Positions 1-61,470 of a DNA stretch of 64,000 nucleotides are shown in pieces. Positions within the stretch are counted from its first letter, which is position 1, and each line of letters starts with the position of its first letter. The notes below the pieces were generated by a model. That model was not told the origin of the DNA. It did not search any database and saw only the letters and a list, made by a program, of their open reading frames with translations. The translations under genes and the position numbers were made by a program. Source of the stretch: Gammaproteobacteria bacterium (GTDB taxonomy: Bacteria > Pseudomonadota > Gammaproteobacteria > CBDBNL01 > JAAOII01); assembly GCA_965209035.1 (NCBI GenBank), contig OZ242372.1, forward strand, positions 1,504,001-1,568,000, in the 5' to 3' direction.

Positions 1-584
1 TGCGTGCGGAAACTGTGATGGTTGGGGGTGTGGGGGTGATCCCTCAATCGCGCCCGCTCAATTCGTCAATCTTTCAGAATCGTTGCGTAAACGCGTAACA
101 AATTGCCGCCGGTAATGGCGGCAATATCCTCGCTCTTGTAATTCAGTTTTGTTAGGGCGTCCCGGACTTTTTCGGTGCCCGCGCCCGCCGGCGAATCCGG
201 CGCCCGCTCAGTCCGTCAATCTTTCAGAACTGTTGCGTAAACGCGTAACAAATTGCCGCCGGTAATGGCGGCAATATCCTCGCTCTTGTAATTCAGTTTT
301 GCCAGGGTGCCCCGGGTTTTTTCGATGCCCGCGCCCGCCGGCGAATCTTGCTCCCGCAAGATTTTGGGTGAGAACCTAAAAATTGACGCGGGTGCGTGCG
401 GAAACTGTAATCGTTGGGGGTGACCCCCAATCCCTCAATCGCCGCCCGCTCATTTCGTCAATCTTTCAGAACCGTTGCGTAAACGCGTAACAAATTGCCG
501 CCGGTAATGGCGGCAATATCCTCGCTCTTGTAGTTCAGTTTTGTCAGGGCGTCCCGGACTTTTTCCGCGCCTGCCGGCGAATCC
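1..584 (-). repeat. Tandem copies of the 3' end (~130 bp incl. stop) of the dipeptidase-like gene
   Basis: TCAATCTTTCAGAA..GTTGCGTAAACGCGTAACAAATTGCCGCC...GGCGAATC occurs at 66, 216 and 458 (gene copy); 1-65 also matches 393-457; array may run past the window edge. Confidence 0.95.
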
Positions 585-1534
585 AGCCCCTCCGCATAAT
601 CATTATCTCGTTCGGTAAAGGCAATGCCGTTCACCAGTCCCGGATGCCTTTCGTAGCGGGTGGGTGTTTTGGTGTGCATTCCGGAAATATCGCCGCCCAA
701 GGCGATGTGTTTTGTGCCGACCAGGCCGGCGATATGCTCTATATGGCGAACCAGATCGCCAACATCGGGTGATTTCTTGTCGCGCGCAATTAAATCGGCA
801 TAAAAACTTAACGCCATAACCCCGCCGCCTGCCGCCAAATGCTTAATGCGCTCATCGGTAAGATTGAGCGGGTGCGGACAAACGACCGCGGCATTGGCGC
901 GGCTGTTCAGCAGGGGCATGTCCGTCAGTTGGCGAATGTGGTCAAATCCTTCGTTGTTAATGGCCGCCGTATCTATGACCATTCCCAACCGCTCCATCTC
1001 GGCGACGACATCTTTGCCGAAGTAGGTCAGGCGACCGCGTGTGCGCGCTTCGGCAACCCCGTCGGCGATGCGGTTGCGGCCGTATCCGCTCAGTTGCACC
1101 GCCCGCACACCCAGCCGCCAAAAATGGCGCAAGTTGGAAAGTGTGTTCAGATTCGCCTTTCCTTCCAGCGGGCGTCCGCCGCCCAAACAAAGAAGGATAC
1201 CCAGTTTTTCGGGATGCCGGCTTAAATCCAAGTCCGCCCGGCAACGGATGAGATACCATTGCCCGCTGTCCTTTTGTTCTTCCTCGGTCTGTGCTTCCTG
1301 CTGGCGGAGAACAACATCCAGATAATTCATCGCATTCCAGAAGTAGTTTTCCGATGCGGTGTTGAGCACCCGAGTTACCCAATCGCCGCCCAGGTCCAGG
1401 CCGAGCCGCGAGATTCCGGCCGCCAGCATCGGCTGTGCCAGATGTTTGCCCAGACTGTACTTGCCCGTGGCGTAAAAATCGGCGCAGATCTGTTCGGGGA
1501 TATGTGCGTGGGCGAGGGTTATTTTTGTTTGCAT
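458..1534 (-). CDS. Membrane dipeptidase (peptidase M19)-like protein with degenerate metal site
   Basis: GRLTYFGKDVVAEMERLGMVID, HPLNLTDE, GGVMAL, HIALGGD and GGNLLRV motifs typical of M19; several metal ligands appear substituted. Confidence 0.8.
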   Translation of the reverse strand: MQTKITLAHAHIPEQICADFYATGKYSLGKHLAQPMLAAGISRLGLDLGGDWVTRVLNTASENYFWNAMNYLDVVLRQQEAQTEEEQKDSGQWYLIRCRADLDLSRHPEKLGILLCLGGGRPLEGKANLNTLSNLRHFWRLGVRAVQLSGYGRNRIADGVAEARTRGRLTYFGKDVVAEMERLGMVIDTAAINNEGFDHIRQLTDMPLLNSRANAAVVCPHPLNLTDERIKHLAAGGGVMALSFYADLIARDKKSPDVGDLVRHIEHIAGLVGTKHIALGGDISGMHTKTPTRYERHPGLVNGIAFTERDNDYAEGLDSPAGAEKVRDALTKLNYKSEDIAAITGGNLLRVYATVLKD

Positions 1535-1578
1535 TTTTATTTTCGTTTTTGTTTTTGTTTTAATTGAATAGTTTGTTG

Positions 1579-5208: not shown

Positions 5209-5991
5209 TCATTGATCTGCCGAGGCGGCATCTGTATCCCGAATAGCACCGGCACTTTTTTCAATTTTTTTGTTGAATAAACAAAGGGTTCGCTCTTTTT
5301 TCTCGCCGGTTTCTTTTGGGTCCAAAAAATCAAAATACGGGCATTCATCGGCATACTTAAACCGAAACGAAGAATCAATGTTTTTGCCGCTTCCCATAAT
5401 TTTATCGCCATAATGTTTATGCAATATTTTGTTGGGGACACAGATTAGATTAATCTCTTCAACCGAAAGGTTTTCCTGATCGTAAACGATGCTAATGAGA
5501 TATGTTAAGCACGGTTTTTTGATTTCCTTGCCCGCTTCTTTTTTTGTATAGTATGCCGGCAAATTGCCTGCGATTTTTTTTGTTTTGTTTACATAATAAC
5601 TCGTTTGGTTTAATCCCAAGGGGATGCCATCTTTGTAGTCTCTTGTGTTTGTAGTCGCGGCTGTTTTAATGTCTATATGAACAAAAGCATTATAGGTTTC
5701 AAACATCATATCCGCCCCGATAGGAGAGGAATTGGGCATTCCAAATCGCTTGTAAAACCAATAGAAAATTCGTTTGGCACCTCTTGCAAATTCCGCATTT
5801 TTATTCGTACTCTTTTTTGCGAAGACATCCTTCCAATCGCCGCGTATTGTTTCTTTGGATGCCAACCCTTGTTTTATTTTTTCCAAATTTTGTGTAAAGA
5901 AATAATGCATATCTTGCAGATAATGATGTTCCCGGAACTCCATGCATTTCATTTCCTTCCGCTCTTTTGCCGTGATTTTGGAAGTGTTCAA
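5209..5991 (-). CDS. Putative type II restriction endonuclease
   Basis: PD-(D/E)xK-like GADMMFETYNAFVHIDIKT; low GC; TTG start overlaps the TGA of the MTase C-terminal frame. Confidence 0.65.
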   Translation of the reverse strand: MNTSKITAKERKEMKCMEFREHHYLQDMHYFFTQNLEKIKQGLASKETIRGDWKDVFAKKSTNKNAEFARGAKRIFYWFYKRFGMPNSSPIGADMMFETYNAFVHIDIKTAATTNTRDYKDGIPLGLNQTSYYVNKTKKIAGNLPAYYTKKEAGKEIKKPCLTYLISIVYDQENLSVEEINLICVPNKILHKHYGDKIMGSGKNIDSSFRFKYADECPYFDFLDPKETGEKKERTLCLFNKKIEKSAGAIRDTDAASADQ

Positions 5992-7357
5992 TCTATTCTT
6001 GTGCGGTAATTTTTATGCAGATGTTTTATATTAATTTTCCCGACACGCTGTTTCATAATATCAATAAAGGAGTCTTGAATTTCTGTCAAAATACACCGTC
6101 GCCACATTTCCAAAGAGGAGACTCCAAAGAGATGATCCCGGTAGTGCCGCTGCCGGCAAACGGATCCGGAACAATGCCGTTTTCGGGACAACATGCCGTA
6201 ATAGCCAAACGGGGTATTTGTTTTGGGTAAATTGCAAAATGCTTGTAGGGAGTATTGGCAACCGGACATACAAACAGGTCTCCGGGGTTTTTACCTTTGG
6301 GGTGAGCGGAAACATCTTGTCTTTTTTTATATTCAACGGTCATTTGCTTGTCATAAGTATTATCAAACTTTAAGATATTTTTCAATTTCATCCAATCTTT
6401 TTTACCGGGATAGGAACCTCCCGCATCCGTTCTAAACCAGTGTCCCGCCTTATGTTGGTATTCCTTTTTATCCATTTTTGTGATGAGTTCCGCGATGGTT
6501 AGTTTATTTTTTACGAGTGCTTCCTTTAGGTAATCGGCCATTTTATTTTGAGAAACTTGAATATCGCGATAAATGGTCCACTGATCGCCATTAACCGAAA
6601 CGCGGGCTCCCGGCGAAGCCCCAAGATTCTTTGTTTGATTTGCAAACTTTCCGTTATATTGATTTTTTTTCTGCCCCTCAAAAAAATCAAGACTGTCCTG
6701 AGTTCTATTTTTGTCTTTAACTTTTTGATCCGCCATCAACATTTTTTCGGAGTTTTGTGGGAGCGACATCTTGTGCGGAACTCTTACGGCGTCCATGTTA
6801 AGATACACATTTTTTTCCCAGTCATTTTTTGTGAAGAAAAAGATCGGCTCATAAGTATTTGTAAACCTGCTTTTCACGGGTGAGGGCATGTGGTTGGGTT
6901 TATACCAGATGATCTGATTTCTTAATAACCAGCCTTTTTGCTGCATCCCAATAGCAACGCGCTGGGGTATCATCTGCAAGTTTTTGTCACAGTATGTATC
7001 ACCGATATTTAAGAAGTAAGCGCCGTCGTCTTTTAAAATTCTCATAATCTCATCGCCGACATCCGTGATTTTTTGAACATATTCCGCAGGATGCCTTTCG
7101 GTTCCAATTTGATCCGTTGTTTCATAATCTCTTAAATTCCAATAGGGTGGCGAAGTCACCACAACGGAGATGCTTTTACTCGGAATTTTTCTTAAGGCAT
7201 CAAAAACATCTCCTATCAAGACACTGGGGGTCTCATCTTGGGGCAGAGATAACCAATGCTCGGAATCTTCCGCGAACTTTTCGCGAGAAGATAAAACATT
7301 GAAACTGTTTGTATTTTGTTTTAGCATCAACTTATTAAATGTAAAAAATAACCTCAT
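5988..7357 (-). pseudogene. N4-cytosine/N6-adenine (beta class) DNA methyltransferase frameshifted near its C-terminus
   Basis: VVTSPPYW and DPFAGSGTTG in ORF 6086-7357; expected tail RRCILTEIQDSFIDIMKQR lies in another frame ending 5988; 14-bp duplication at 6109-6131. Confidence 0.8.
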
Positions 7358-19218: not shown

Positions 19219-21702
19219 CTAAGGACGCTGAATGGCGACCCCGCCGGGGGTGCAACGGATGGCCGGATATTGGGTAGCATTCCCGAGATCCCAGACGCGG
19301 ACGAATCCTTCCGCCGGCTGCGTCCCGCTTTCTCTCACCTCACTTGTGCCGGGTTTGCACCAGAAGTTTGCCCAAGCGGTATAGATGCTGTCAGTGAATC
19401 TGGTCGGGGTTTGCAGTTGGTCGGTGGTTCTTTGCCACATTTGCTCCGGCAAACGGGTGTTTGCGGGTATGTCCATAGTATCGTTATTCCAGTAGGAATT
19501 GTTGATATTGAAAAATGGCAGTGCTTGCTGGTTCGGAAATACGAATCCGGCCCGCGATAAAGTTGGAGAAACAATGCTATCAAGGGCCGCATAAGAGTTT
19601 TCAACCCATACGAATTCGCCGGTGCCATATTGGCCGTGTCCGATTAATCCGCCTACGGTGGATATACCGCCGCCGGTGCCGGATACCCGACCACCGGCCG
19701 CATAAGAGTTGTCAATGTCCAAGTTTCCACTCAAGCCGACCAGGCCGCCTATATTGATTTCGCCGGATACATCATTATTGAGAGCATAAGAGGTGTTCAG
19801 CCAAGGGCGGCGACCCGCCGGGCTCCCGGCGGGAATAGTAAAGCGACCTTGAAATTGTCCGACCAGCCCGCCCACATTGGCACTCCCGGTGATATTGCTA
19901 TGGATGACCGCCGTATTGATCGCCTCACTTTCTTCAAGGTACCCGGCAAGACCGCCCACATCGGTTGCATCCGATTTTAGCGCGGTGCCGGATACCAAAA
20001 TGTTTTCAAGACGCGTATTGCGCCCGCCATAACCCGCCAAGGTTCCCACATAAGTATTGCCGCCGCTGATGTTCGCGGCCAACAGGCGCAGGTTGCGTAG
20101 TGTGCCGTTTGTTGCGCTAAATAAACCAATGCCCTGGATATTGCCGGCTGCCGCGATGAACAGATTGGAGAGGTTATGATGGTTGCCGTCAAAGATACCC
20201 ATATAGCGTCGCGCAGGGCACATGCCTCCGCCCACGCAAGAACCGATGGGGGTCCATCCGCTGCCGTTTGTCCAAAGGGCCATATTGCGACTGCCCGGCG
20301 CATAGGAATTGGCATCGCTAAAATTTAAAGAACGCAACAATTCATAGCCGATACAACCGGCAACGGGGCAACCCGCATCGCCAATTGCATCAATTGCAGC
20401 AATATTGCCATCGTCCCTGCCATCGCCGTTGAGATCATCGCGCATCCGCGCCAACTCATCCAGCGTCCGGATATCTATCAAACTGTTGTTATTGTCATCC
20501 GCATCCGCATCATCTGCATAACCGTCATTGTCATCGTCCGGATCGCAAGCATCGCCCAAGGCATCACCGTCGAAGTTTGTCTGTTTGGGGTTGACGGTTG
20601 TCCGACAGTTGTCCGAAGGTGTCGTCCCGTCGGGTTCAAAATCCGGGATGCCGTCATTGTCATCGTCCGGGTCTTCGTCGCTGTCGCGGCAGCCGTCGCC
20701 GTCGTGGTCCGTGGTTTGATTGGAGGTCCAGTCGGTTGCGTTGCGCGCGCAAGCGTCCAACGGGGTCCCGTCGGGATTCAGGTCATTGACGCCGTCATTG
20801 TCATCGTCCGGGTCTTCGTCGCTGTCGCGGCAGCCGTCGCCGTCGTAGTCCGTGGTTTGACTGGAAGTCCAACCGATTTCCCCGGTGGGACAGAGATCCA
20901 AAGGAGTGATCCCGTCGGGTTCAAAATCCGGGATGCCGTCATTATCATCGTCCGGATCTTCGTTGCTGTCGCGGCAGCCGTCGCCGTCGTAGTCCGTGGT
21001 TTGGCTGGAAGTCCAACCGATTTCCCCGGTGGGACAGAGATCCAAAGGAGTGATCCCGTCGGGTTCAAAATCCGGGATGCCGTCATTATCATCGTCCGGA
21101 TCACAGGCATCGCCGATATCGTCTCCGTCCGAACTCACTTGCCTTGGATTGACTGTTGTCCGACAGTTATCCCGCGGTGTCGCCCCGTCCGTTTCAAAAT
21201 CATTGATGCCGTCATTGTCATCATCTTCATCCGTGCTGTCCGGATACTCATCGCCGTCCGTATTCATCCCCGGCGTGCGACGCAGGATTGCCGAAGGAAC
21301 CGTCCGTCCGGTTTCATAAATGACGGTTACTTGCAAAGTATGATTATGACCATTTATCAGATTTTCAATGGGATAGTTGACCCTTGCCAGAGCGGATACA
21401 TTCGTTTCCGATGAGGTAAGTTTTATGGTCATGTTACGGGTTGAGGTTGTATCGGTCCAGGTGATATTGAATTGATTGATATTGTTATGTTCGGGGTTGG
21501 TCCAGCTGACATTAATCACAGAGTCGCCCGGAAAGGCGGCGAGATTGGAAACGCTGTCGCGCGGCATATCGCCGACAGAAATAGTGCGTTTATTGGTGGT
21601 GAATTCACAGGCTGTGAGCGGAACAAACAATAGCCCGATGATCGATACAAACCGCAATAACGATGCTTCATAATTGCCAAAAACTGGACCGGCAAATCTC
21701 AT
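19219..21702 (-). CDS. Surface lipoprotein: FnIII-like, thrombospondin type 3-like Ca-binding repeats, GLUG-like domain
   Basis: Lipobox LTAC; WTNP FnIII-like segment; repeated DxDGDxxGDACDPDDDNDG; VGGLVG motifs. Confidence 0.8.
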   Translation of the reverse strand: MRFAGPVFGNYEASLLRFVSIIGLLFVPLTACEFTTNKRTISVGDMPRDSVSNLAAFPGDSVINVSWTNPEHNNINQFNITWTDTTSTRNMTIKLTSSETNVSALARVNYPIENLINGHNHTLQVTVIYETGRTVPSAILRRTPGMNTDGDEYPDSTDEDDDNDGINDFETDGATPRDNCRTTVNPRQVSSDGDDIGDACDPDDDNDGIPDFEPDGITPLDLCPTGEIGWTSSQTTDYDGDGCRDSNEDPDDDNDGIPDFEPDGITPLDLCPTGEIGWTSSQTTDYDGDGCRDSDEDPDDDNDGVNDLNPDGTPLDACARNATDWTSNQTTDHDGDGCRDSDEDPDDDNDGIPDFEPDGTTPSDNCRTTVNPKQTNFDGDALGDACDPDDDNDGYADDADADDNNNSLIDIRTLDELARMRDDLNGDGRDDGNIAAIDAIGDAGCPVAGCIGYELLRSLNFSDANSYAPGSRNMALWTNGSGWTPIGSCVGGGMCPARRYMGIFDGNHHNLSNLFIAAAGNIQGIGLFSATNGTLRNLRLLAANISGGNTYVGTLAGYGGRNTRLENILVSGTALKSDATDVGGLAGYLEESEAINTAVIHSNITGSANVGGLVGQFQGRFTIPAGSPAGRRPWLNTSYALNNDVSGEINIGGLVGLSGNLDIDNSYAAGGRVSGTGGGISTVGGLIGHGQYGTGEFVWVENSYAALDSIVSPTLSRAGFVFPNQQALPFFNINNSYWNNDTMDIPANTRLPEQMWQRTTDQLQTPTRFTDSIYTAWANFWCKPGTSEVRESGTQPAEGFVRVWDLGNATQYPAIRCTPGGVAIQRP
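20530..21260 (-). repeat. Intragenic ~144-bp (48-aa) TSP3-like repeats
   Basis: GGGACAGAGATCCAAAGGAG at 20887 and 21031; DPDDDNDGIPDFEPDG repeated in the protein. Confidence 0.9.
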
Positions 21703-24470: not shown

Positions 24471-25361
24471 ATGACAGATTGGATTCAAACAACTCTGCTC
24501 GCCTTCGTCCAGGGGGTGACCGAGTTTCTGCCGGTTTCCAGTTCGGCACATTTGGCACTGCCCGCCATACTCTCGCCGGCGATTATCCAACGCAGTCTGT
24601 TATTTGACGCCGCCTTGCACGGCGGAACACTGGCGGCGGCACTCGTATTTTTTCGGTCGGATCTGGTGCGATTATTTGTATCTTGTTTTTGGCAAACACG
24701 CGGCGGTACAAATGTCGCGGTAGCCGCGGCCCGGGAAGACAGATACTTTGTGGCAATGCTCGCGCTTGCGGCCCTGCCGGTGCTGGCGGCGGGATACCTC
24801 TTGGCGGATGTTGTTTCTTTGCTGCATCGCCTTCCCGTTATTGCCGGCACGACCTTCGTCTTTGGTTTGTTTCTTTGGCATGCGGTGCGGGTGTCACAGA
24901 AGCGGGCAAAAAGCAAAGGTTCGGTCGCCGAGATCTCATGCGAAAAGATCACTTGGGATCTTGCACTTTGTATAGGAGTGGGACAAGTTCTCGCTTTGGT
25001 GCCGGGTGTTTCGCGTTCCGGCATCACCATCACGGTCGGACTTTGGCTTGGCATGTCACAACGAGAGGCTGCCCGGTTTTCTTTTCTTCTTGCCGTTCCG
25101 GTCATTTTTGCCGCATCCGCTTACAGTTTTTGGCAATTGTTCACCGGTGATTCATCGCTCGTCTCTTCGGCGGATGCATCGGATGCATGGCGTCACGCTT
25201 TGTTCGGCGCATTGGTTGCGTTTGTTTTTGCCTATCTGACGATGGAATTCTTTTTCCGGCTGCTTGACCGCGTCGGCATGATGCCCTTTGTCGCTTATCG
25301 CCTGTTTCTCGGCGGCATCCTATTGTTATACTGGCTGTTTTTCCAAGGGGGGGCTTTTTAA
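24471..25361 (+). CDS. uppP: Undecaprenyl-diphosphate phosphatase
   Basis: VQGVTEFLPVSSSAH, PGVSRSGIT, AARFSFLL, FVAYR. Confidence 0.95.
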   Translation: MTDWIQTTLLAFVQGVTEFLPVSSSAHLALPAILSPAIIQRSLLFDAALHGGTLAAALVFFRSDLVRLFVSCFWQTRGGTNVAVAAAREDRYFVAMLALAALPVLAAGYLLADVVSLLHRLPVIAGTTFVFGLFLWHAVRVSQKRAKSKGSVAEISCEKITWDLALCIGVGQVLALVPGVSRSGITITVGLWLGMSQREAARFSFLLAVPVIFAASAYSFWQLFTGDSSLVSSADASDAWRHALFGALVAFVFAYLTMEFFFRLLDRVGMMPFVAYRLFLGGILLLYWLFFQGGAF

Positions 25362-39550: not shown

Positions 39551-39723
39551 CGATATGACAACTTCGGCTGGCAGATTCCCTGTCCGGATTCTCCGTATGA
39601 CGATATGACAACTTCGGCTGGCAGATTCCCTGTCCGGATTTTCCGTATGACGATATGACAACTTCGGCTGGCAGATTCCCTGTCCGGATTCTCCGTATGA
39701 CGATATGACAACTTCGGCTGGCA
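39523..39723 (+). repeat. 50-bp tandem repeat x4 spanning the upstream stop and the pepP start
   Basis: YTCCGTATGACGATATGACAACTTCGGCTGGCA at 39541, 39591, 39641, 39691 with alternating T/C. Confidence 0.97.
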
Positions 39724-41099: not shown

Positions 41100-42422
41100 A
41101 TGACGCCCGCAATCACGAACACCGCGAACACCATGATCACACATGATCACCACGAATACAAGGAGAAGCAAGTTTACGATATTTTAATTGCCGGCGGCGG
41201 TCTGACGGGGGCCGCAGCCTACTGTGCTTTGGCGACGGTTGTGCGAGAACAAAAACTCACGATGGCACTTTGTGAAAGGCATTCCGTCCATGCCAACGCC
41301 GCCGCACAGGATCAGAGAGTGCTGGCGTTGGGCCGCGGGGCGGTCAGTATCCTGCAAGAATGGGGGCTGTGGGAGCAGATCCGCGCATACGCGCACCCGG
41401 TTTCTTCAATGGCATTTTTCTTGGCAGACAGGACCACAGTCATTGACGCCCGCCAACTGGGTTGGGATGCCTGGGGCTGGACCATCCCGCATTCCCGGAT
41501 GATGCAAGTTTTAATGGAGCGGGTTGCCGCACTTGCCAAAGAAGACAACCGCTTGGATCTGTGCGCTCCTTTTTGCATAGAAGATTTTCAACTGACCGCC
41601 AACGGGATGCGGCTGACGGATAAGAAACGGCACAGTGCGCTCGCGGCACGCCTGGTGCTTTCGGCCGAAGGAGCCAAGGGTGTGCTTTCCGCGGGCATGC
41701 AAGTCAAGAGGACATTTTTACGCGAAGAATATCCGTCCGATGCCGCCGCAAAGACAGCCGTTTCGGCGGGCGTATCAGCCAAGGGCGTTTCTCCGAACAG
41801 CGGCTACTGGTTTTGGAATACGGACGGCGGCGGTGGTGTTCTTGCTCTCATCCCTTATAAAAATGCAGAGAACGAGGTTGCCCGAACATCGGTTTTTTTA
41901 CCCCCCTGGCAAAAAAAAGAGCAAGAGCAAGAGCAAGAGAAAGAGAAAGAGAAAGTGCAAACGAAACCGGATGATTATTTAAAGCATCTTACCCGTTTCA
42001 GTCGCGGGATGATTGATGACCTCACGAGCGAACCCGGTACATTTTTAATAGAATCTTATAAAACCGAAGAACGATTAAAAGGACCTCTTTTGTTGCTGGG
42101 AGACGCCGCCCATCGGATGACCCCCCTGGGCGGACAAGGTTATAATCTCACACTTTGGACTCTGGAAAAACTAAGACAGGCATTTGAACAACGCCCCGTC
42201 ACCGGGGAAAAAGAATTTCCGGCAAACCGCTCTTTCTTATTGGATTACATTATTCAAACCCAGCCGACCATAGACCGACGGTATGATCTCGTCCGGTTGG
42301 CGGCGGACGGTTTGGCGGATCGCCGCGCCGCTGTTGAAAAACTGACCCGGCTATTTTCCGGTCTGCCTTCGGTTGCCGCTGTCTGCTTGGACTTTGCAGT
42401 CGGGTTGGATGCCGACCTTTAA
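41100..42422 (+). CDS. UbiH/UbiI-like FAD-dependent hydroxylase
   Basis: IAGGGLTG, SAEGA, LLGDAAH..PLGGQGYNL; pepP-ubiH synteny. Confidence 0.8.
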   Translation: MTPAITNTANTMITHDHHEYKEKQVYDILIAGGGLTGAAAYCALATVVREQKLTMALCERHSVHANAAAQDQRVLALGRGAVSILQEWGLWEQIRAYAHPVSSMAFFLADRTTVIDARQLGWDAWGWTIPHSRMMQVLMERVAALAKEDNRLDLCAPFCIEDFQLTANGMRLTDKKRHSALAARLVLSAEGAKGVLSAGMQVKRTFLREEYPSDAAAKTAVSAGVSAKGVSPNSGYWFWNTDGGGGVLALIPYKNAENEVARTSVFLPPWQKKEQEQEQEKEKEKVQTKPDDYLKHLTRFSRGMIDDLTSEPGTFLIESYKTEERLKGPLLLLGDAAHRMTPLGGQGYNLTLWTLEKLRQAFEQRPVTGEKEFPANRSFLLDYIIQTQPTIDRRYDLVRLAADGLADRRAAVEKLTRLFSGLPSVAAVCLDFAVGLDADL

Positions 42423-42870
42423 TGGCTCTTTTTTGTCGGACTACATTATTCAAATTCAAGCCCAGCCGGCTATAGGCAGACCGGAGACCGCCGGTATGCT
42501 CTTGTCCGGTTGGCTGCGGACGGTTTGGCGGGTCGCCGCGCCGCTGTTGAAAAACTGACCCGACTATTTTCCGGTCTGCCTTCGGTTGCCGCTGTCTGCT
42601 TGGGCGGTTGGGCTGGGCGGTTGGGCTGGATGCCGACCTTTAATCGTTCTTTTTTATCGGACTACATTATTCAAATTCAAACCCAGCCGGCTATAGGCAG
42701 ACCGGAGACCGACGGTATGCTCTTGTCCGGTTGGCAGCGGACGGTTTGGCGGGCCGCCGCGCCGCTGTTGAAAAACTGACCCGACTATTTTCCGGTCTGC
42801 CTTCGGTTGCCGCTGTTTGTTTGGACTTTGCGGTTGGGATGGGCGGTTGGGCTGGATGCCGACCTTTAAT
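42229..42870 (+). repeat. Three copies (gene plus two) of the last ~195 bp of the ubiH-like gene
   Basis: GAYTACATTATTCAAA...GCCGCTGTTGAAAAACTGACCCG...GGATGCCGACCTTTAAT ending 42423, 42644, 42870. Confidence 0.95.
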
Positions 42871-42939
42871 GGCGGCCGGAATTTTTTCTTCTCTTATATA
42901 AACTATAAACAGGCAGTATAACCAGCCCTTTGGCTGTTA

Positions 42940-47821: not shown

Positions 47822-49636
47822 TCAGTAAATCACTTTCACGGTTTCTCTATTTAATCCTAATAAGTTTAGCCATTTTTCAAGATTGATATCCGCGTAGCCA
47901 TCAATATAAATGCGATGGTTTGCAAACTCCTTCAGTGAAGATTTACATTGACCCAGTACAAAATAAGAATTACCTACTTTGTATAGTAAGTCCTCTTCTA
48001 TTTCTTTTATTGATTCTGTAAGTAGCACTTCTCCAGATGCTGCCATCATGTTATAAAGAGTATCCGCTGGTGTAAAGCGGTTAATTTGTAACTTTAATGA
48101 TCCAGTATCTGCCTCTTGTAATTGAGGACGATCAATTAAGGAAAATACTTTATAATCGGTATCTAAATCTTCTGCCAACATACCGGCCTCCTTCAAAATT
48201 TTATGTCCCGCCCTTCTGACACGCTCTATACAAATAGAAGATATAAAAGGATCTAGTTTATTTGATATACAAAAATCGTGTGCCTCTTTGTTCTTTTGAG
48301 GGTCAATTTTTTCATCCGACTGCACCAAAATAAATTTACGGTTTCCTCCGTCTTCTTTGTTCTGTTTCATTACAGCATGGGCAGTTGTTCCACTGCCTGC
48401 GAAGAAGTCTAATATAAAAAAATCTTTGTCAGGAGTTGCTTTTATGAATTTTTTAATTAAGTCAACAGGTTTAGGAAAGTCCATGACCTTAATATTATCA
48501 AACAGTTTCTTTAACTTGTTGGTGGCAGTTTCTGTTTGATACGGTCCTAAGTGTGATGTTATAGGCAGATATGGATTTTGATACTCATGGGGATATTTTT
48601 TCTGTCTTGGTGTTCCTGACTTATCTTTTGGGAAAATAATTCGTTTTTCTTTGATCATCTTTTCTATACGTGATCTTGAAAGTGCCCATTTTTTATGAAA
48701 CTTATTACCAGTATCAGGATCAGTAATTGTAAATTCGGATCTCGTAGGTACTGTAGACTTCATATTATCCGCTTTCCAAGGGCCTTGGGGATCATTATCC
48801 GGATTTGAGAACCCGGTAAGGCCTCTGTCCTTTCCTACGAAATACGTGTTATTGTTTTTTGCATAGCACAAAATATACTCATGATTCGCAACAACACCAG
48901 TTTTTGGTGGAACGCCTTTGGGAGCAGTTTTGGTCACCCAAGTGAATGTTGTAATAAAATTGGGTTCTCCAAAAATTTCAGAACACATTAATTTTAAATT
49001 TGCCATTTCCTTATCATCTATAGAAATAAGAATAACCCCGTTATCTGTTAATAGCTCTCTTGCTAACTTTAATCTTGGGTACATTGCAAACATCCAGCCT
49101 GAGTGATTAAGAGAACCGAACATATTCTCAAAAAAATCTTGTGCCTCTGGGTCTATATCGTAATCTTCGATTAGCTGCTTTTCATTCACTTTAAAACTAT
49201 CTTTATAAATGAAATTGGCATTTTCGGTATTGTATGGAGGATCAATGTAGATCATCTGAATCTTGTTTGTATAATTTTGCCGCAATATTTTTAAGACATC
49301 CAGGTTATCACCGCGAATAATAGTATTTTTAGTTTTATCGAAGTTGCTTGATAGCTTTCGCTCTATTCTCAACTCTTTATTCGTAGAAATATCTGCTTGG
49401 GCATTTGCCAGACCCTTACCGGCAAAGTTCAATAAATATCCTTGTTTGGAAGATATAAGATTGTCTTGGCCTAAAAAGTCTTTTAATGCATCGACATCTA
49501 ATTTGTCATCTCCGTTAACCAACCCGGGAAGAATTTGACGAATCTGTTTGAGTTTGGTAACCTTATCATCGACAATAGTTTCTGAAGAATCTATGACCCC
49601 GTAACCGGCTTTTTTTGTACTTTTTTTATCTAACAT
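47822..49636 (-). CDS. Type III restriction-modification methyltransferase (Mod)
   Basis: GDNLDVL, YIDPPYN, FPKPV, LDFFAGSGTT, RKFILVQ. Confidence 0.93.
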   Translation of the reverse strand: MLDKKSTKKAGYGVIDSSETIVDDKVTKLKQIRQILPGLVNGDDKLDVDALKDFLGQDNLISSKQGYLLNFAGKGLANAQADISTNKELRIERKLSSNFDKTKNTIIRGDNLDVLKILRQNYTNKIQMIYIDPPYNTENANFIYKDSFKVNEKQLIEDYDIDPEAQDFFENMFGSLNHSGWMFAMYPRLKLARELLTDNGVILISIDDKEMANLKLMCSEIFGEPNFITTFTWVTKTAPKGVPPKTGVVANHEYILCYAKNNNTYFVGKDRGLTGFSNPDNDPQGPWKADNMKSTVPTRSEFTITDPDTGNKFHKKWALSRSRIEKMIKEKRIIFPKDKSGTPRQKKYPHEYQNPYLPITSHLGPYQTETATNKLKKLFDNIKVMDFPKPVDLIKKFIKATPDKDFFILDFFAGSGTTAHAVMKQNKEDGGNRKFILVQSDEKIDPQKNKEAHDFCISNKLDPFISSICIERVRRAGHKILKEAGMLAEDLDTDYKVFSLIDRPQLQEADTGSLKLQINRFTPADTLYNMMAASGEVLLTESIKEIEEDLLYKVGNSYFVLGQCKSSLKEFANHRIYIDGYADINLEKWLNLLGLNRETVKVIY

Positions 49637-52512
49637 CCATTAATATTTTTTAATAATTGAGTTAGTTCTTCTTTGTTAATTCTTTTCTTGAATACCACTT
49701 CAACTGAATCATTTTGTTGGTTCACAGCCTCAAAAAATTTTGTGGCATACTCAATCTTTCTTTGCTCTTCATCTGGTATCCTGCTTTGACGATCGTATCC
49801 TTTGGTTTCGACAATTAAAAATAATTTCTTGCCCGAATCGCATCGAATATAATATGCAAAATCGGGACTATAAGATTTATAAGGTGTCGGGATGCTTATT
49901 TTTGGCAACTTTGCAAATACTACAATTTTTTTATTACCAATTTTCAGTGGCTCTGTCTTGGCAACTTCTTTTTCTATACTAGAATCATAGACGATCTTAT
50001 CATAAAGATAATTTTCTGCCGGATATTCGGTTTGCTGAGTTACGTATCTGCCAATTTGATGTGCATCTATTTTCTTTTTGCAAATTTTGTATTCTTCATC
50101 TTGATAAAAGATGTTTCTTGCGTTTATGAAAACTTCATTCTCAAAAGCATAACTAATGCTCTGAACAACTACCTTATGAATTTCATCCTTGAAAATTGTT
50201 GTTAACAACTGTTGTGCTCGGGTCGGGTCTTTTTTTATTTTTTCTTCGGATAACATATTAAACATTTCACAACAAAATCGTATTGGTAGATTTTCTCTTT
50301 TGGCAAAGTTACCAATAAAATTTTTGTAACTACTTCTTGTAAAAAAACGGGCATACCCGGTTGGGTTTTCTTCTACGGTTTCAAATCTATTTTTATTATG
50401 ATTATAGACGTGTCGCTTTATTTTCTTTTCCACAGGATGAACATCTTCTCTTTCAAAAGAGCTTCTAACCGAACGAATTAAAGATTTTTCATCAATATTG
50501 TGATACCGAATACGTGCTTTGCGAGTAATGGTTTCCCACAAACTTTCAAATTCTTTAAATTTTTCTTGTCTTATACCAACTTGATTTACTATTCTATTGG
50601 CATTTATTACAGGGAGGTCAACTGCTCTTTTAAATTTTTGTATCAAAACTTCATACATTTCTTTGCCAAAGAGTTTTTGCAAACGTTCTCCTTGTTCTTG
50701 TAAAAAGTCATAGATTGAATCGTTAATCTTCCATATTCCGTCTGCATTGCTGATAGGAGAAATAACATTGGCATCTTCTAAATAGACTATCAAACGACCT
50801 ATGTGAGATTCAGTTAATCCAATTGCTTTCAACATATTCCGGGTTAACTTTTGGTAGGTAATACTATTCCCAACAATCTCATTTTGTATTTCTTCCACAA
50901 AATTTTCTTCTTGACCGGACACAATGATATCTAACATATTGATGTTGTAAAAATTACTTTCATTATTTTCGCAATATCCAATAGTTTGTCGTTTACCTTC
51001 TTGATCGACTGCCAATCGTAATCCTCTGCCCACCTGTTGGCGGCGTGATGTTTCTTGATCGGTTGATGCCAGTTTACATATCGTAAAGATGTTAGGGTTA
51101 TCCCATCCTTCTTGTAAGGCCCAAACTGAAAAAATGAATCTTAAGGGTTCTTTCGTAGATAATAGTTTTTCCTTTTCATTCAAAATTAGATCAACTCCTT
51201 CGGATTCTTTTGTCTCTCTTGAACCCTTGTCACCTGAAAAATATCCTTCGTGAACTCGTAATTGATTATTATCGTTATAGTCTTTTTGTAAATAGTCACG
51301 ATAGGTAGAACTTAATTTTTTCTTTAAAACAACTTTTCTCTGTCTCTTATATTCTTCTTCAAAAATATTTTTGATGCGCGGATTCCCTCCTCTATAATCG
51401 GATATGTTTGGGATGAAAAAAAGAGACAGCGTTTTTATACCTTTCTTAAATAAAATTTCCTCTTTGTTGAAATGAATTTCTATGGCTTGTTTTACCATAG
51501 TATGAATAGACAAGTCATTTAATTGATAATCGTTGGAGCTTAAAGAACGCTTTGTTCCGTTACTTAAAAATACTTCTCTTTTTTTCAAGCGAACAACATG
51601 GAAATCGTGCTCTTTTTTACCTGTGAACACCTCTATATTCTCTTTGCATCTTATATCTCTTACAAATTCTTCACCATCTTTAAAAAAATGAATACAAAGT
51701 GTATTGGGGTTTTTCCCCTTGTAAAATTTAATGCCGGTTTCTCTGTCTATTATTGTGGACACCTTGATTTTTTTTACCAGATAGTCACGAAATGCAGTGA
51801 TGCTATCTAACATATAAACAACATTTGATAACTTGAAATCATTATCAGTAGGGAAAGTTGCCCCAAATCTCAAACACAAAGACTTGGAAAAATAACACTC
51901 ATAAGTATTAACGAAACTGGCTCCTTTTAACAAATGTGGTTCGTCAATAAAAATTACCGGACTGAGTTCACCAATTGCAGATAACGGTGATTTTTGTTCA
52001 TAAAGTAAACTCTCATTTCTACGCCTAAGTTTTCTATCCGCTTCATTGTTTCCTGTTATAGAAGCACTTGTTAATATTAAGACTGAAAATTCTTGTTTAT
52101 TACGGATATAATCCAATACCTGATTTAATCCACTCTTATCACCATAAATGTGCTTTTTGATGCGTACATGGTATTCATGAAAAAAGTAATCGGATGTTAA
52201 ATCAATGTTTTGAAGGATGCAACTCTTAATAGCAAGGCGTGGAACAAAAACAACAAACTTATTGATGCCGTAATTTTTATTCATTTCATACATAGTTTTT
52301 AGGTAAGTAAAGGTTTTACCTGTTCCTGTTTCCATTAGAACATCTAATCGAGATTTTGTACTTAAATGGCTTTCTGGAATATTTTCTTTTTGTTGTAATT
52401 CTTTGATGCTTTCTTTAAGAGATGAAAAATCTCTCAAATTATCCGTAGATTCAAGGATTTTCATAATATTGTTTACACAATCCTCTTGGTATTTTTGCTT
52501 TTCAAATAACAT
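49630..52512 (-). CDS. Type III restriction endonuclease (Res)
   Basis: METGTGKT, IDEPH, QEGWDNPN, QQVGRGLRL, C-terminal PDF...IVETK. Confidence 0.93.
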   Translation of the reverse strand: MLFEKQKYQEDCVNNIMKILESTDNLRDFSSLKESIKELQQKENIPESHLSTKSRLDVLMETGTGKTFTYLKTMYEMNKNYGINKFVVFVPRLAIKSCILQNIDLTSDYFFHEYHVRIKKHIYGDKSGLNQVLDYIRNKQEFSVLILTSASITGNNEADRKLRRRNESLLYEQKSPLSAIGELSPVIFIDEPHLLKGASFVNTYECYFSKSLCLRFGATFPTDNDFKLSNVVYMLDSITAFRDYLVKKIKVSTIIDRETGIKFYKGKNPNTLCIHFFKDGEEFVRDIRCKENIEVFTGKKEHDFHVVRLKKREVFLSNGTKRSLSSNDYQLNDLSIHTMVKQAIEIHFNKEEILFKKGIKTLSLFFIPNISDYRGGNPRIKNIFEEEYKRQRKVVLKKKLSSTYRDYLQKDYNDNNQLRVHEGYFSGDKGSRETKESEGVDLILNEKEKLLSTKEPLRFIFSVWALQEGWDNPNIFTICKLASTDQETSRRQQVGRGLRLAVDQEGKRQTIGYCENNESNFYNINMLDIIVSGQEENFVEEIQNEIVGNSITYQKLTRNMLKAIGLTESHIGRLIVYLEDANVISPISNADGIWKINDSIYDFLQEQGERLQKLFGKEMYEVLIQKFKRAVDLPVINANRIVNQVGIRQEKFKEFESLWETITRKARIRYHNIDEKSLIRSVRSSFEREDVHPVEKKIKRHVYNHNKNRFETVEENPTGYARFFTRSSYKNFIGNFAKRENLPIRFCCEMFNMLSEEKIKKDPTRAQQLLTTIFKDEIHKVVVQSISYAFENEVFINARNIFYQDEEYKICKKKIDAHQIGRYVTQQTEYPAENYLYDKIVYDSSIEKEVAKTEPLKIGNKKIVVFAKLPKISIPTPYKSYSPDFAYYIRCDSGKKLFLIVETKGYDRQSRIPDEEQRKIEYATKFFEAVNQQNDSVEVVFKKRINKEELTQLLKNINGC

Positions 52513-52535: not shown

Positions 52536-52762
52536 AATTCAAACCACTAACGCAACACCTTTTGTTATATTGTATCCCTTGCCGCCAATTAATAAACCCG
52601 GAAAATCTTTTTGATTCCCGGTTGGCAAAAATTCCCGGCAAGGTTATGCCGGCACAAACTGAAGAATCTTCAAAAGATTCGGCATCTCATTAATTTCACG
52701 GGAATGCTCTCTAACGACTTTGCACGCAAATACAAAACATACCCGGCAGGGTGGGTTCATAT
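52536..52762 (+). repeat. Composite repeat A+B; A recurs at 54135-54299 and B at 55523-55611
   Basis: AATTCAAACCACTAACG...TTTTTGATTCCCGGTTGGCAAAAA...GCCGGCACAAACTGAAGAATCTTCAAAAGATTC occurs twice; CGGCATCTCATTAATTTCACGGG...GGCAGGGTGRGTTCATA occurs twice. Confidence 0.9.
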
Positions 52763-52955: not shown

Positions 52956-54149
52956 ATGAAAAACATCCGGGTAGAAATTAAAGGTCAGGTCTTTACACCG
53001 GCAGAAATTGTGTTGCGTATGATTTCTTTAAGAAAGAACAAAGGCAATGTCCTGGAACCGAGTGCGGGAGACGGCGCTTTTTCAAGACATTTTAAGAAGG
53101 ATGTTGTAGTGTCTGTTGAAAAAGAGAAGGCGGTCATTAAAGATAAGGGAACATTAAATATGGACTTTTTTGATTTCCCAACAAAAGAAAAGTTTGATAC
53201 TATTATCGGGAATCCTCCGTATGTCAAACACAATAATATTGAAGGTGACACCTTGCGGAAATTGGATTATACTTTTTTTGACAAAAGAACCAACTTGTAT
53301 TTATTTTTCATTGAAAAATGCTTAAGACATTTGAGAAAAAAAGGGGAAATGATTTTGATTGTTCCAAGAGAATTTATTAACTTAACAAGCGCTAAAAAAT
53401 TGAATGAATTATTATGTGCAAAAGGAACAATCACCGATTATATCGACCTGGGGGATCAAAAAATATTCGCCGACGCATGTCCCAATGTGGCAATTTTTAG
53501 ATTTCAAAAAGATTGTTTTGACAGGAAAACAAACAGGAGTCTCACTTTTAATTGTATCAACGGCAAGATTTTATTTACAGGCTGCGAGAACAAGATGACT
53601 CTGGGCGAACTCTTTGATGTGAAGGTTGGGGCGGTGAGCGGTGCGGATAGTATTTTTACCGATGATAGCGGTAACGCTTCTTTTGTTTGTTCATATACGG
53701 CAAAAACCGGGAAAACCAAGAGAATGTTTTTTAATGTTAAGCATAGAAAACTTTCCTCCCACAAAGAAGCATTACTCAAAAGAAAAATTAAGAAGTTTGA
53801 TGAGAAAAACTGGTATATGTGGGGCAGAAATCATTTTATTTCCAATGAACCGAGAATATATGTAAATTGCAAGACACGCAATAAAACTCCTTTTTTTACA
53901 CACAGATCCGAATACTATGACGGCTCGGTTCTGGCTTTGTTCCCCAAAAGAGAGATGAACATAAAGAGATATATTGATATCCTTAATAAGGTTGATTGGG
54001 AAAAACAAGGGTTTGTTTGTAATGGCAGATATCTGTTTACACAAAGAAGTTTGACAAATGCTCTTATAAAAAGATCGCATGTGGGACCTGATGCCGGATT
54101 GTTCACGCAAAGAAGCTTAACAAATACTCTGTTCAATTCAAACCACTAA
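52956..54149 (+). CDS. N6-adenine DNA methyltransferase (gamma class)
   Basis: GQVFTP, LEPSAGDG, IIGNPPYV; from memory resembles H. pylori HP0910-type MTases (unverified). Confidence 0.9.
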   Translation: MKNIRVEIKGQVFTPAEIVLRMISLRKNKGNVLEPSAGDGAFSRHFKKDVVVSVEKEKAVIKDKGTLNMDFFDFPTKEKFDTIIGNPPYVKHNNIEGDTLRKLDYTFFDKRTNLYLFFIEKCLRHLRKKGEMILIVPREFINLTSAKKLNELLCAKGTITDYIDLGDQKIFADACPNVAIFRFQKDCFDRKTNRSLTFNCINGKILFTGCENKMTLGELFDVKVGAVSGADSIFTDDSGNASFVCSYTAKTGKTKRMFFNVKHRKLSSHKEALLKRKIKKFDEKNWYMWGRNHFISNEPRIYVNCKTRNKTPFFTHRSEYYDGSVLALFPKREMNIKRYIDILNKVDWEKQGFVCNGRYLFTQRSLTNALIKRSHVGPDAGLFTQRSLTNTLFNSNH

Positions 54150-54431
54150 CGTAATACTTTTCGCAACACCTTTTGCGATACTGCATTCCCAGCCGTTAAG
54201 TATTAACTCCCGGCAGATATTTTTGATTCCCGGTTGGCAAAAATTTCCGGCGGGGTTATGCCGGCACAAACTGAAGAATCTTCAAAAGATTCGACATCTT
54301 CTTATGCTTAGCATTTACTTGGCATTTTGAAAAAAACCCAAACAGAGACTCTGCCGCAGCTTGGGGGAATTTGTCCCGATTGTTTTTTCTAATTTCCGCG
54401 ACTATGGAACAATCCGACTACCGAACTGCCG

Positions 54432-57384: not shown

Positions 57385-57389
57385 ATAGC

Positions 57390-57414: not shown

Positions 57415-57441
57415 AATGAGACTTTAAAACAATAACCATTA

Positions 57442-58779: not shown

Positions 58780-58814
58780 ATCTTAATCTCTAATCCTTAA
58801 TTCTCCCCGTTGGG

Positions 58815-59960
58815 ATGATCAAATCTGCGGAGGCTGCGGGCCTTTATTGTGTCGGCCATGCTTTGGTGGATTACGAGATCAAGGTAGAAGACCGCTATTT
58901 GGATCACCATAGTATTAAGAAGGGTCAAATGACCCTGGTGGACGAAGCGGCTTTTCGTTATCATCTTGAAAAAAATCTTTCCCATCTGGTTGTTGACCGG
59001 GCGGGCGGTGGCTCGGCGGTGAACAGTTTGGTGACCTATGTGAGGCTCGGCGGAACGGGCAGCCTGTGTTGCCAACTTGCGGCGGATGACGGCGGCGACT
59101 TTTTCAAACAAGAACTGGTTAACTTGGGTATTGCCGTTATCAATGGGCGGGATGAGCAAAATGGGCAGTCCGGACAAAATGGGCAAATCGGACAAAACGA
59201 ACCTGCGTCTCCCGTATCCGCAACCGCATCGGGCGCGCATCCCTCCGAACCTGCGTCTCCCGCCGGACCTACGGAAACTACAGGACCCACGGAACCCACA
59301 GGGCGATGCCTGGTGCTGATTACGCCGGATGCGGAACGCACTATGTTGACGCATCCGGGCATCAATCAAAGGTTAAACTCTCCGGCGAACTTGACAGATG
59401 CTCTTGCCACCGGTGCGCTTTTTTACGGGGAAAGTTACTTGGTTTCTGGCGACGCCCAATTTGAATGTTTGATGGAACATCTTCGGGCTTGTCGGGAATT
59501 GAAGATAAGAACCTCTGTGAGCATGTCCGATGTGAGTATGGTTGTCCACTTTCGGCAGCGGATGATCGCGGTTTTGGATTCCGATCCGGATATCCTTTTT
59601 GGCAATCGGGAGGAATTTGGCGAGTACACCGGCCAGAAGGATCCCGATAAGATGGCGGGCAAACTGGACGGCAAAGTGAACACTCTGGTGCTAACGGACG
59701 GGAAGCACGGCTCTTTTGTTTATCATGCGGGCAAGAAGATAAATGTGCCGGCATTGCGGACAGATGCCAAGGATACTCTGGGGGCGGGAGACGCCTATGC
59801 GGGTGCGTTCTTGTATGCAATGCAGGAACGAGGATGTGAGCCGGCCGCCGCCGCCGAGTTTGCCGCGGCCGCCGCCGGTCAAGTCGTTAGTCGTTTTGGT
59901 CCCAGGCTGAACATGACCGAATGCCAAGAATTAATATCTCAATTTTTTCCCTCATCTTAA
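58815..59960 (+). CDS. PfkB-family kinase, likely adenosine kinase
   Basis: GHALVD, KGQMTL, GGSAVN, TPDAERTM, DTLGAGDAYAG; adjacent to ahcY. Confidence 0.85.
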   Translation: MIKSAEAAGLYCVGHALVDYEIKVEDRYLDHHSIKKGQMTLVDEAAFRYHLEKNLSHLVVDRAGGGSAVNSLVTYVRLGGTGSLCCQLAADDGGDFFKQELVNLGIAVINGRDEQNGQSGQNGQIGQNEPASPVSATASGAHPSEPASPAGPTETTGPTEPTGRCLVLITPDAERTMLTHPGINQRLNSPANLTDALATGALFYGESYLVSGDAQFECLMEHLRACRELKIRTSVSMSDVSMVVHFRQRMIAVLDSDPDILFGNREEFGEYTGQKDPDKMAGKLDGKVNTLVLTDGKHGSFVYHAGKKINVPALRTDAKDTLGAGDAYAGAFLYAMQERGCEPAAAAEFAAAAAGQVVSRFGPRLNMTECQELISQFFPSS

Positions 59961-61470
59961 AAAAGTAGCGAATCACCGGCAGCCGTAAGCCCCGGCTCTT
60001 ATGGCATCCCGCCGGGCCGGGCTGAAGAAGCTCCTATCCACTTTCACTGACCGCCACAGGTTGCCCGGCTCCTTAGATTGTCCCTCATCTTAAAAAAGTA
60101 GCGAATCACCGGCAGCTGTAACCTCGACTCTTAGGTTATCCGTTGTTCGTTTCCCGGCCGGGGTTTGGTCTCGTCCGTTTTTTCCCTCACTTTATAAGAA
60201 GTAGCGAATCACCGGCAGCCGTAAGCCCCGGCTCTTAGGTTGTTCGTTTCCCGGCCGGGATTTGGTCTTGCACCACCGAGTTTGCCGCGGCCGCCGGTCA
60301 AGTCGTTAGTCGTTTTGGTCCCAGGCTGAACACGACCGAATGCCAAGAATTAATATCTCAATTTTTTCCCTCATCTTAAAGAAGTAGTGAATCACCGGCA
60401 GCCGTAACCTCGACTCTTAGGTTATTCGTTGTCCGTTTCCCGGACGGGGTTTGGTCTCGCCCGTTTTTTCCCTCATCTTAAAAAAGAAGTAGCGAATCAC
60501 CGGCCGCCGTAACCTCGACTCTTAGGTTGTTCGTTTCCCGGACGGGATTTGGTCTCGTCCGTTTTTTCCCTCACCTTAAAAAAGTAGCGAATCACCGGCA
60601 GCCGTAACCTCGACTCTTAGGTTGTCCGTTTCCCGTTTCCCGGGCGGGGTTTGGTCTCGTCCGTTTTTTCCCTCATCTTAAAAAAGTAGCGAATCACCGG
60701 CAGCCGTAACCTCGACTCTTAGGTTGCTCGTTGTCTATCTCCCGACCGGGGTTTGGTCTCGTCCGTTTTTTCTCTCATCTTAAAAAAGTAGCGAATCACC
60801 GGCAGCCGTAACCTCGACTCTTAGGTTATCCGTTGTCCGTTTCCCGGCCGGGGTTTGGTCTCGTCCGTTTTTTCCCTCATCTTAAAAAAGTAGCGAATCA
60901 CCGGCAGCCGTAACCTCGACTCTTAGGCTATCCGTTTTCCGTTTCCCGGCCGGGGTTTGGTCTCGTCTGTTTTTTTCCTCACTTTATAAGAAGTCGCGAA
61001 TCACCGGCAGCCGTAACCTCGTCTCTTAGGTTATCCGTTGTCCGTTTCCCGACCGGGGTTTGGTCTCGTCCGTTTTTTCCCTCATCTTAAAAAAGTAGCG
61101 AATCACCGGCAGCCGTAACCTCGACTCTTAGGTTATCCGTTGTCCGTTTCCCGGACGGGGTTTGGTCTTGCACCACCGAGTTTGCCGCGGCCGCCGCCGG
61201 TCAAGTCGTTAGTCGTTTTGGTCCCAGGCTGAACATCACCGAATGCCAAAAATTAATATCTCAATTTTTTCCCTCATCTTAAAAAAGCAGCGAATCACCG
61301 GCAGCCGGCAGCCATAAACCCCCGGCTCTTATGGCATCCCGCCGGGCTGGGTTAGGTTGGGCTGACCCGGGCCGGGCTGAAGAATCTCCTATCCACTTTC
61401 ACTGACCGCCACAGGTTGCCTGGCTCTTAGATTAGATTGCCCGGCTCTTAGATTGACCGTTTCCCGACCG
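59853..61470 (+). repeat. Array of 12 units (~95-103 bp modal) containing the pfkB stop region
   Basis: GAATCACCGGC at 59970, 60103, 60206, 60389, 60494, 60589, 60691, 60793, 60895, 60998, 61100, 61292; two units carry ~105 bp of coding 3' end (60276, 61176). Confidence 0.95.

Follow-up and report, generated by a model that had tools for sequence, protein, structure and literature searches.

Tandem duplications behind genes in a repeat-rich family of Gammaproteobacteria

A stretch of 64,000 nucleotides from a Gammaproteobacteria bacterium (assembly GCA_965209035.1, contig OZ242372.1, positions 1,504,001 to 1,568,000; called the window below) contains several genes whose own 3' end is repeated, in diverged copies, directly behind the gene. 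The question raised by these stacks is whether something in this organism acts specifically at gene ends, as the original prediction, made from the letters alone, had supposed. We addressed this in the whole genome (G000; 2.24 Mb in two contigs, the window being C1 1504001-1568000) and in a number of relatives. The stacks are a known kind of tandem duplication in a lineage that is exceptionally rich in it, with a selective filter that favors gene 3' ends. We think it probable that they are ordinary tandem segmental duplications (bacterial minisatellites) with units of 30 to about 460 nt, filtered by selection. Coordinates are those of the window unless prefixed G000:C1 (this genome) or G001:C1 (a relative from another genus of the same family).

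Arrays throughout the genome

Arrays were detected with Tandem Repeats Finder (TRF) and a repeat finder, after which their limits were extended by self-BLAST. TRF reports 25 rows in the window, among them every one of the six arrays that had been named, with nearly the limits first given, and the repeat finder shows their copies in register (see Table 1). The copies lie head-to-tail at a constant period of 50 to 392 nt, two to eight to an array, and are 82-97% identical according to TRF, which agrees with the divergence noted earlier. By Pfam, the genes beside the arrays belong to Peptidase_M19, BacA (UppP), transketolase, Peptidase_M24 with AMP_N, FAD_binding_3 and PfkB. Units are specific to their locus: when 11 unit and flank pieces were aligned to the whole genome with BLAST, copies were found solely within each piece's own array, so the statement that the arrays share no sequence stands.

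Arrays of this kind are spread over the whole genome. TRF yields 912 rows genome-wide, of which 288 have a period of at least 40 nt. After merging, and with a minimum period of 30 nt, 207 arrays are obtained: 138 in genes and 69 outside genes. The underlying gene calls (1,659 genes, coding density about 85%) were made with a simple caller of open reading frames (ORFs) based on codon usage, in which stops are exact and the start is that of the longest ORF. Among the 33 cleanest arrays of the genome, 14 have a copy number within 0.05 of an integer; the others have partial end copies.

Inside genes the arrays preserve the reading frame. Counted before merging, 138 of the 141 in-gene periods are divisible by three (3n), against 25 of 71 outside genes, as chance predicts. 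Because a 3n array can itself create an ORF, we repeated the count for strict in-gene arrays, which fill at most half of the gene and have at least 150 nt of gene on either side: 101 of these 102 periods are 3n, as are all 36 with a copy identity of at least 88%. In G001, where the array analysis covers the first 400 kb of 2.32 Mb, the pattern is the same: a 3n period is found for 46 of 46 strict in-gene arrays and for 19 of 61 arrays outside genes. Periods of 3n inside genes and of any length outside are the signature of random duplication followed by selection.

Two further arrays may be mentioned here. At G000:C1:726276-732033 a 123-nt unit is repeated 41 times inside a gene of 8.2 kb, and at G000:C1:1165715-1168887 a non-coding block of 3.2 kb, located 6 kb from dnaA, is composed of 345-464-nt units.

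Stops, starts and the origin of the stacks

Whether arrays overlap stop codons more often than expected from random placement was a comparison set beforehand. In the model used, segments with the same periods are placed at random and only non-internal placements are kept. Of the 69 outside-gene arrays of G000, 22 overlap a stop, 9 a start and 6 both, and 32 are purely intergenic, where random placement expects 14.9, 16.3, 12.7 and 25.1, respectively. The clearest departure is a shortage of arrays that include a start. Stops differ significantly from starts (p = 0.011) and show no enrichment over purely intergenic positions (p = 0.58). In G001 the 113 arrays divide into 52 in genes, 18 over a stop, 4 over a start, 4 over both and 35 intergenic (expected outside genes: 8.9, 9.9, 2.8 and 39.5). 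Pooling the two genomes gives 40 arrays that overlap stops and 13 that overlap starts. The excess of 3' over 5' ends is real, and it is compatible with selection, since a duplicated 3' end leaves the gene untouched.

The stop itself has no preferred position. Arrays over stops penetrate the gene by 6 to 262 nt in G000, and the depth of the stop relative to the period is uniform (Kolmogorov-Smirnov p = 0.80, and 0.60 when pooled with G001); therefore the stop codon is without a fixed place in the unit. In co-directional spacers, 18 of the purely intergenic arrays are nearer to the downstream start and 5 nearer to the upstream stop. It is the copying of a start codon and its coding end that is avoided; the upstream region in itself is not.

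We propose that the duplications arise all over the chromosome; the most plausible route is slippage during replication or template switching, with unequal sister-strand exchange as the next step. Persistence inside genes would be limited to frame-preserving (3n) duplications. A duplication that straddles a stop would leave the gene intact and add dead copies of the 3' end downstream, so that it could be tolerated at any length; duplication of a start codon with the 5' coding end would be tolerated about half as often. Later rounds would amplify interior units as well as their deletion derivatives, and the outermost copies would therefore keep the ancestral flank.

Such an anatomy is observed behind tkt and pfkB, where alignment confirms the earlier observation that the first and last copies share a flank that the middle copies lack. 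In the tkt array, copies 2 and 3 have a common deletion of 14 nt relative to copies 1 and 4, and copy 4, which is partial, keeps the flank of copy 1 before it runs into unique sequence. The pfkB array contains three 141-nt copies of the gene's 3' end (at 59851, 60270 and 61173) and about ten 102-nt units, each combining the gene's last 18 nt with a terminator-like hairpin; a flank of 60 nt is common to the first and last long copies (60012-60071 and 61367-61426), which retain about 70 nt absent from the 102-nt units. In our reading of the alignment, the 102-nt unit would be the long unit minus an internal stretch between two short direct repeats. An early duplication, followed by a deletion in an interior copy and then by amplification of that copy, would account for the shared flanks at both loci.

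Once formed, the copies would be non-functional and decay in place, and indeed they look like decaying dead DNA rather than like alleles or cassettes. We aligned every repeated gene end of at least 45 nt with its downstream copies. Differences between gene and 3'-end copy number 113, 139 and 180 at codon positions 1, 2 and 3 (counts that include changes inherited by several copies), and those between copies 110, 98 and 146, which puts about 41% at third positions. The downstream copies show 49 indels, 28 of which are not multiples of three. For reads of a related organism (run X4, 90-95% identity), 22 of 37 listed in-gene differences fall at third positions, the 37 being the best-supported of 265 differences to the window. 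Substitutions between adjacent copies cover all six classes, with 467 transitions and 409 transversions. Given these frame-breaking indels and this share of third-position differences, the suggestion that the stacks result from uptake of 3' alleles and yield swappable C-termini is not maintained.

A number of results weigh against a purely selective account of ordinary duplication. Arrays that span a stop exceed the naive non-disruption expectation in G000 (22 against 14.9, or 1.5 times) and in G001 (18 against 8.9, or 2 times), and in G001 they are also about twofold enriched over intergenic positions (p = 0.007); the predicted enrichment at stops, absent from G000 in the comparison with intergenic positions, is present in its relative. 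These two genomes are kin and not independent samples, and the start class is imprecise because the caller takes the longest ORF as start. Convergent spacers in G000 contain 23 arrays and divergent spacers 5, at 171 and 170 sites, respectively. Arrays outside genes cluster around the replication origin (median relative distance 0.24, Kolmogorov-Smirnov p = 1e-6) and in-gene arrays do not, which the model of selected duplications does not predict. Median values for the strongest 44-nt hairpin are -16.8 kcal/mol over 28 stop arrays and -14.0 kcal/mol over 168 matched 3' regions of other genes (p = 0.049). In the tkt array, a 49-nt segment found between copies is missing from the last copy and has no source elsewhere in the genome according to BLAST; this filler is not produced by a clean single duplication. 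Finally, no repair defect among the families tested (see below) explains the abundance of arrays. It may be that a modest mutational bias toward termination regions acts beside selection.

Taken further, such a bias becomes an explanation of its own: the same duplication process would have a true mechanistic preference for transcription-termination regions, where hairpins or conflicts between replication and transcription stall forks and so lead to slippage. The excess over stops, the convergent spacers and the marginally stronger hairpins all point in this direction. In addition, the units of uppP and pfkB end in terminator-like hairpins with the unit boundary at a T-run, 16 of 34 genes with stop arrays are encoded on the leading strand, compared with 64% for genes overall (p = 0.05), and the authors of a study on variable-number tandem repeats (VNTRs) in Wolbachia assume that hairpins trigger slippage (PMC3287509, in its discussion of VNTR origin). 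Nonetheless, we regard a true preference of this kind as unlikely. The stop is randomly placed within the unit, the convergent excess is not seen in G001 (7 against 6 arrays), intergenic arrays are closer to starts than to stops, and young arrays (at least 88% identity) are as frequent in genes as outside (48 and 51). The gap in hairpins is also small: one of -15 kcal/mol or stronger occurs in 57% of stop-array units and in 42% of control 3' regions. It was correctly noted that most units contain a hairpin, which is chiefly a consequence of hairpins being present in most gene 3' regions. In the uppP and pfkB units the hairpins are followed by T-runs.

A second explanation is that the arrays are kept by selection for a function, as stacked terminators, as tandem small-RNA genes that tune 3' untranslated regions, or as silent cassettes for C-termini. 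The 3' half of the uppP unit (25470-25577 and its repeats) is predicted to fold into two hairpins, the second having a 13-bp terminator stem (z = -4.5 relative to shuffles), and could be a tandemly duplicated small-RNA gene or simply a terminator; a terminator-like hairpin is present in every pfkB unit, and pfkB of G001 likewise has a downstream copy of its last 45 codons. These points are outweighed by the frame-breaking indels with a weak third-position bias, by the orthologous 3' ends of tkt, pfkB and the ubiH-like gene, which lack arrays in four relatives, and by the absence of anything common to the units of different loci. Rfam finds no family at gathering thresholds in the window and gives only chance-level matches in the uppP array. 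Arrays of the same kind also occur at 5' ends and in plain spacers. A function of the gene-end copies appears quite improbable.

Still less probable is the reading from which the analysis started, in which a process is triggered at stop codons or transcript ends (termination-coupled duplication, insertion of complementary DNA (cDNA), or uptake of foreign 3' alleles). It would fit the excess of 3' over 5' ends in two genomes and the occurrence of six arrays within 64 kb. It is largely refuted by the uniform position of the stop in the units, by copies that are nearest to the local gene and decay neutrally, and by the arrays at 5' ends, at junctions, in intergenic positions and in frame within genes, which are all alike in kind (9 over starts, 6 over both ends, 32 intergenic and 138 in genes). 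A cDNA-templated insertion does not agree with the zero matches to reverse transcriptase family RVT_1 in five genomes (G000, G001, G002, G005 and G017). As the arrays are the survivable fraction of a general duplication, the claim of a stop-directed writing mechanism should not be carried forward.

That the copies are an assembly artefact, being collapsed strain variants or mis-joined long reads, is hardly credible: the genome does resemble a long-read assembly (two contigs) and the only runs that carry the stretch (X1-X3) derive from one sample, but the Logan short-read contigs of all three contain copy-specific sequence without a single difference, they stop exactly at the borders of all four arrays compared, the copies differ by 3-18%, chiefly through substitutions, and in-gene arrays keep the reading frame. 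The raw-read check for single copies proposed at the outset is answered by contigs 42361-42563 and 42615-42784, with depths of 13.6 and 12.7 against 12.9-16 in the flanks. Strain variants wrongly placed in tandem would split the depth, which here is that of a single copy, and the reads bear the copies out. As X1-X3 are possibly the source of the assembly, this is a check of the assembly and not of an independent strain. There is no RNA run among those listed for the stretch. One X3 contig joins 32818 to 33533, with three extra A after 32792, at a depth of 17.7 (about half that of the main genome there); it may represent a related strain without the tkt array, its shorter side being just 30 letters.

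A lineage trait and its known counterparts

Array richness is a trait of the lineage. For comparison we used G001-G004 from the same family, G005 from the same order, and G009 and G017 from the same class. The number of arrays with a period of at least 30 nt per 400 kb is 24-58 in five chunks of G000, 122 in G001 and 33 in G002, against 14 in G005, 10 in G009 and 6 in G017: the relative from another genus is richer still, whereas the more distant relatives are poor. A search of named genomes with tkt gives only matches of 55-59% identity, nearly all to Gammaproteobacteria, and its identity to the relatives of the same family is 57-61%. In G001, G002, G003 and G005 the tkt, pfkB and ubiH-like orthologues are without 3' arrays, and the arrays are therefore young relative to the genera.

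The downstream copy at pfkB of G001 differs from the stacks in the window. It lies 3.2 kb downstream of pfkB, after a repeat protein of 888 aa and before an IS30-like transposase, and 39 of its 45 residues are identical to that genome's own pfkB. Here (G001:C1:1369000-1379000, 5883-6230) an ORF of 115 aa consists of an EamA-like N-terminal fragment and the copy of the last 45 pfkB codons.

To put the abundance in figures, TRF was run with the settings of the Wolbachia VNTR study (2-7-7, score 50, period up to 500). G000 then yields 730 rows, covering 6.8% of the chromosome when summed and 4.6% by union; the first 400 kb of G001 reach 21.7% summed and 13.9% by union. Table 4 of that study gives, at these settings, 201 repeats and 6.3% of the genome for Ehrlichia ruminantium, termed there the highest yet reported in bacteria; the value for E. 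coli is 0.38% (PMC3287509). In repeat content, two complete genomes from a single family match or surpass the richest bacterium named in the literature consulted. It is possible, although we lean against it, that this family has a specific and strongly raised rate of, or tolerance for, tandem duplication of 30-460 nt, through a replication- and termination-linked mechanism that favors positions behind genes, with the outside-gene arrays concentrated around the origin in G000. By the summed measure, G001 lies above E. ruminantium, the richest bacterium as of the 2012 table.

With respect to the origin, its placement follows from a GC-skew minimum near 1.12 Mb and from dnaA at 1,159 kb (G000:C1). 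Out of the 68 outside-gene arrays of C1, 47 lie in G000:C1 800,000-1,600,000, which includes the window. The young in-gene arrays are spread evenly about the chromosome (p = 0.22).

A cause was sought in 14 families of repair and replication proteins, DnaA included. MutS, MutL, RecA, RecJ, the large subunit of ExoVII (XseA), UvrD-type helicases, Rho and RNase HI are found in both G000 and G001; a loss of mutS, mutL or recA, which had been proposed as a point to check, is not seen. RecQ and SbcD were not found in either genome; the idea of repair or replication gene loss as the cause was dropped, as they also lack a match in the repeat-poor G009 (complete, 1.5 Mb), where MutS and MutL are without match as well. 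UvrD restrains recombination in E. coli. In G000 an array of 4.9 copies of a 116-nt unit (G000:C1:340901-341464, 96% identity) overlaps the first 140 nt of the best UvrD-helicase ORF (338695-341040, minus strand). This stack on a 5' end is probably a coincidence, since arrays are more numerous in G001, where the UvrD-helicase match occupies an open frame of 709 aa.

The arrays have what characterizes tandem segmental duplications or minisatellites of the VNTR type: a constant period, a local and locus-specific unit, and a frame filter. Among the systems described so far, the nearest is E. ruminantium (Collins et al. 2005 PNAS 102:838; Frutos et al. 2006 J Bacteriol 188:2533), known here through later papers, which describe a small genome with many long-period non-coding tandem repeats and expansion and contraction of units. 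The present arrays differ in that their copies are diverged (median identity 92%), and they occur in a genome whose coding density is about 85%. The E. ruminantium repeats reportedly also produce truncated and duplicated gene fragments. A further likeness is found in Wolbachia, where, in the part of the study devoted to them, VNTR-141 and VNTR-105 are locus-specific intergenic repeats with periods of 105-141 nt, hairpins and in some cases internal deletions, which the authors explain by slipped-strand mispairing that the hairpins facilitate (PMC3287509). The arrays behind tkt and pfkB are built in the same way. The Wolbachia repeats described there concern few loci with periods that are about 98-99% identical, whereas the present genome has dozens of more diverged arrays, many over gene ends.

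A 2025 survey of 5374 prokaryotic genomes reports a higher frequency of tandem repeats ahead of starts and behind stops, and a lower one in coding sequence, with intergenic DNA seen as more permissive or regulatory, and gives an average genome-wide coverage of 2.1%, obtained with another program (PMC12418385). The passages of the survey used here contain neither stacks of gene-end fragments nor an asymmetry of 3' over 5' ends (PMC12418385). In a literature search that was not exhaustive, we found no description of stacked gene 3' ends as a distinct phenomenon.

Other systems resemble the stacks in that they consist of short repeated DNA near genes, often with hairpins; their exclusion in the original prediction is upheld. 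Repetitive extragenic palindromic (REP) elements and miniature inverted-repeat transposable elements (MITEs) are dispersed, and nothing is shared between the loci studied here, no unit being copied outside its own array; the arrays are therefore neither REP nor MITE. Clustered regularly interspaced short palindromic repeats (CRISPR) do not apply, as whole units repeat without unique spacers (no search for cas genes was made). A diversity-generating retroelement is rejected on the lack of RVT_1 in the five genomes and on substitutions of all types, with no adenine-specific change. Against an integrative element that duplicates its att site, the copies, in units of 50-392 nt, abut without any intervening gene, and Pfam finds no integrase among the 16 proteins scanned.

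The family can serve as a natural system for measuring how bacterial tandem duplications originate, spread, decay and are filtered. The filter is unusually legible: 3n in genes, a deficit at starts and freedom at stops.

Individual features of the window

Coordinates of the arrays are collected in Table 1. Gene 3' ends had been named as the source of every array, which holds generally and requires two corrections. The uppP array begins 15 nt before the end of its gene (24471-25361), so that the overlap amounts to just these 15 nt, and each unit closes with a hairpin with a 13-bp stem and a T-run. The array at 39523-39723 is a duplicated gene junction, more than a 3' end: its unit carries the stop of the upstream gene together with the start codon and 19 coding nt of pepP.

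Table 1. Repeated features of the window, with their strand.
Feature	Position	Strand	Description
Dipeptidase array	1-584; extends 208 nt left of the window (-208 to 584)	-	Found by TRF, repeat finder and self-BLAST
In-gene array	20522-21222	-	144-nt (48-codon) in-frame unit within the gene of an 827-aa fn3/TSP_3 protein (19219-21702)
uppP array	25347-25933, plus a degenerate fourth hairpin at 25982-26031	+	216-nt unit, 2.7 copies, 97% identity
tkt array	32740-33174	+	Four copies of the last 55 nt of tkt (30752-32794) with downstream sequence
937-aa gene/pepP junction array	39523-39723	+	50-nt unit, 4 copies; stop at 39550, pepP start at 39705
ubiH-like array	42229-42873	+	221-nt unit, 2.7 copies; last 194 nt of the gene repeated
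Methylase motif	54033-54131	+	32-nt motif (weak), recurring in frame after 66 nt close to the end of an Eco57I-type methylase gene (52956-54149)
pfkB nested array	59851-61470 as a whole; 59851-61426 (repeat-finder families D6/D15); 59912-61351 (TRF extended by self-BLAST)	+	3' of pfkB (58815-59960)

What is repeated of the M19 dipeptidase gene (458-1534, minus strand) in the dipeptidase array is its final 127 nt; the 150-nt copies (50-199, 200-349 and 442-591) are nested in a higher-order repeat of 392 nt. The array at 20522-21222 is an example of the in-gene class. Behind the ubiH-like gene, an FAD-monooxygenase (41100-42422), the copies contain an ORF of 89 aa (42510-42779), an example of the spurious small ORFs that gene callers will derive from dead gene-end copies.

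For the methylase, the in-frame repeat that had been proposed is confirmed as a motif and its offset; the repeat is weak, however, and goes unreported by TRF even at a score of 30. The same Eco57I-type methylase gene is flanked by direct repeats of about 140 nt (52551-52692 and 54162-54304, 76-91% identical) at a spacing of 1611 nt; these may be left over from a large tandem duplication or from the exchange of a gene cassette. Upstream, the region adjoins a Type III-like restriction-modification pair (47822-52512).

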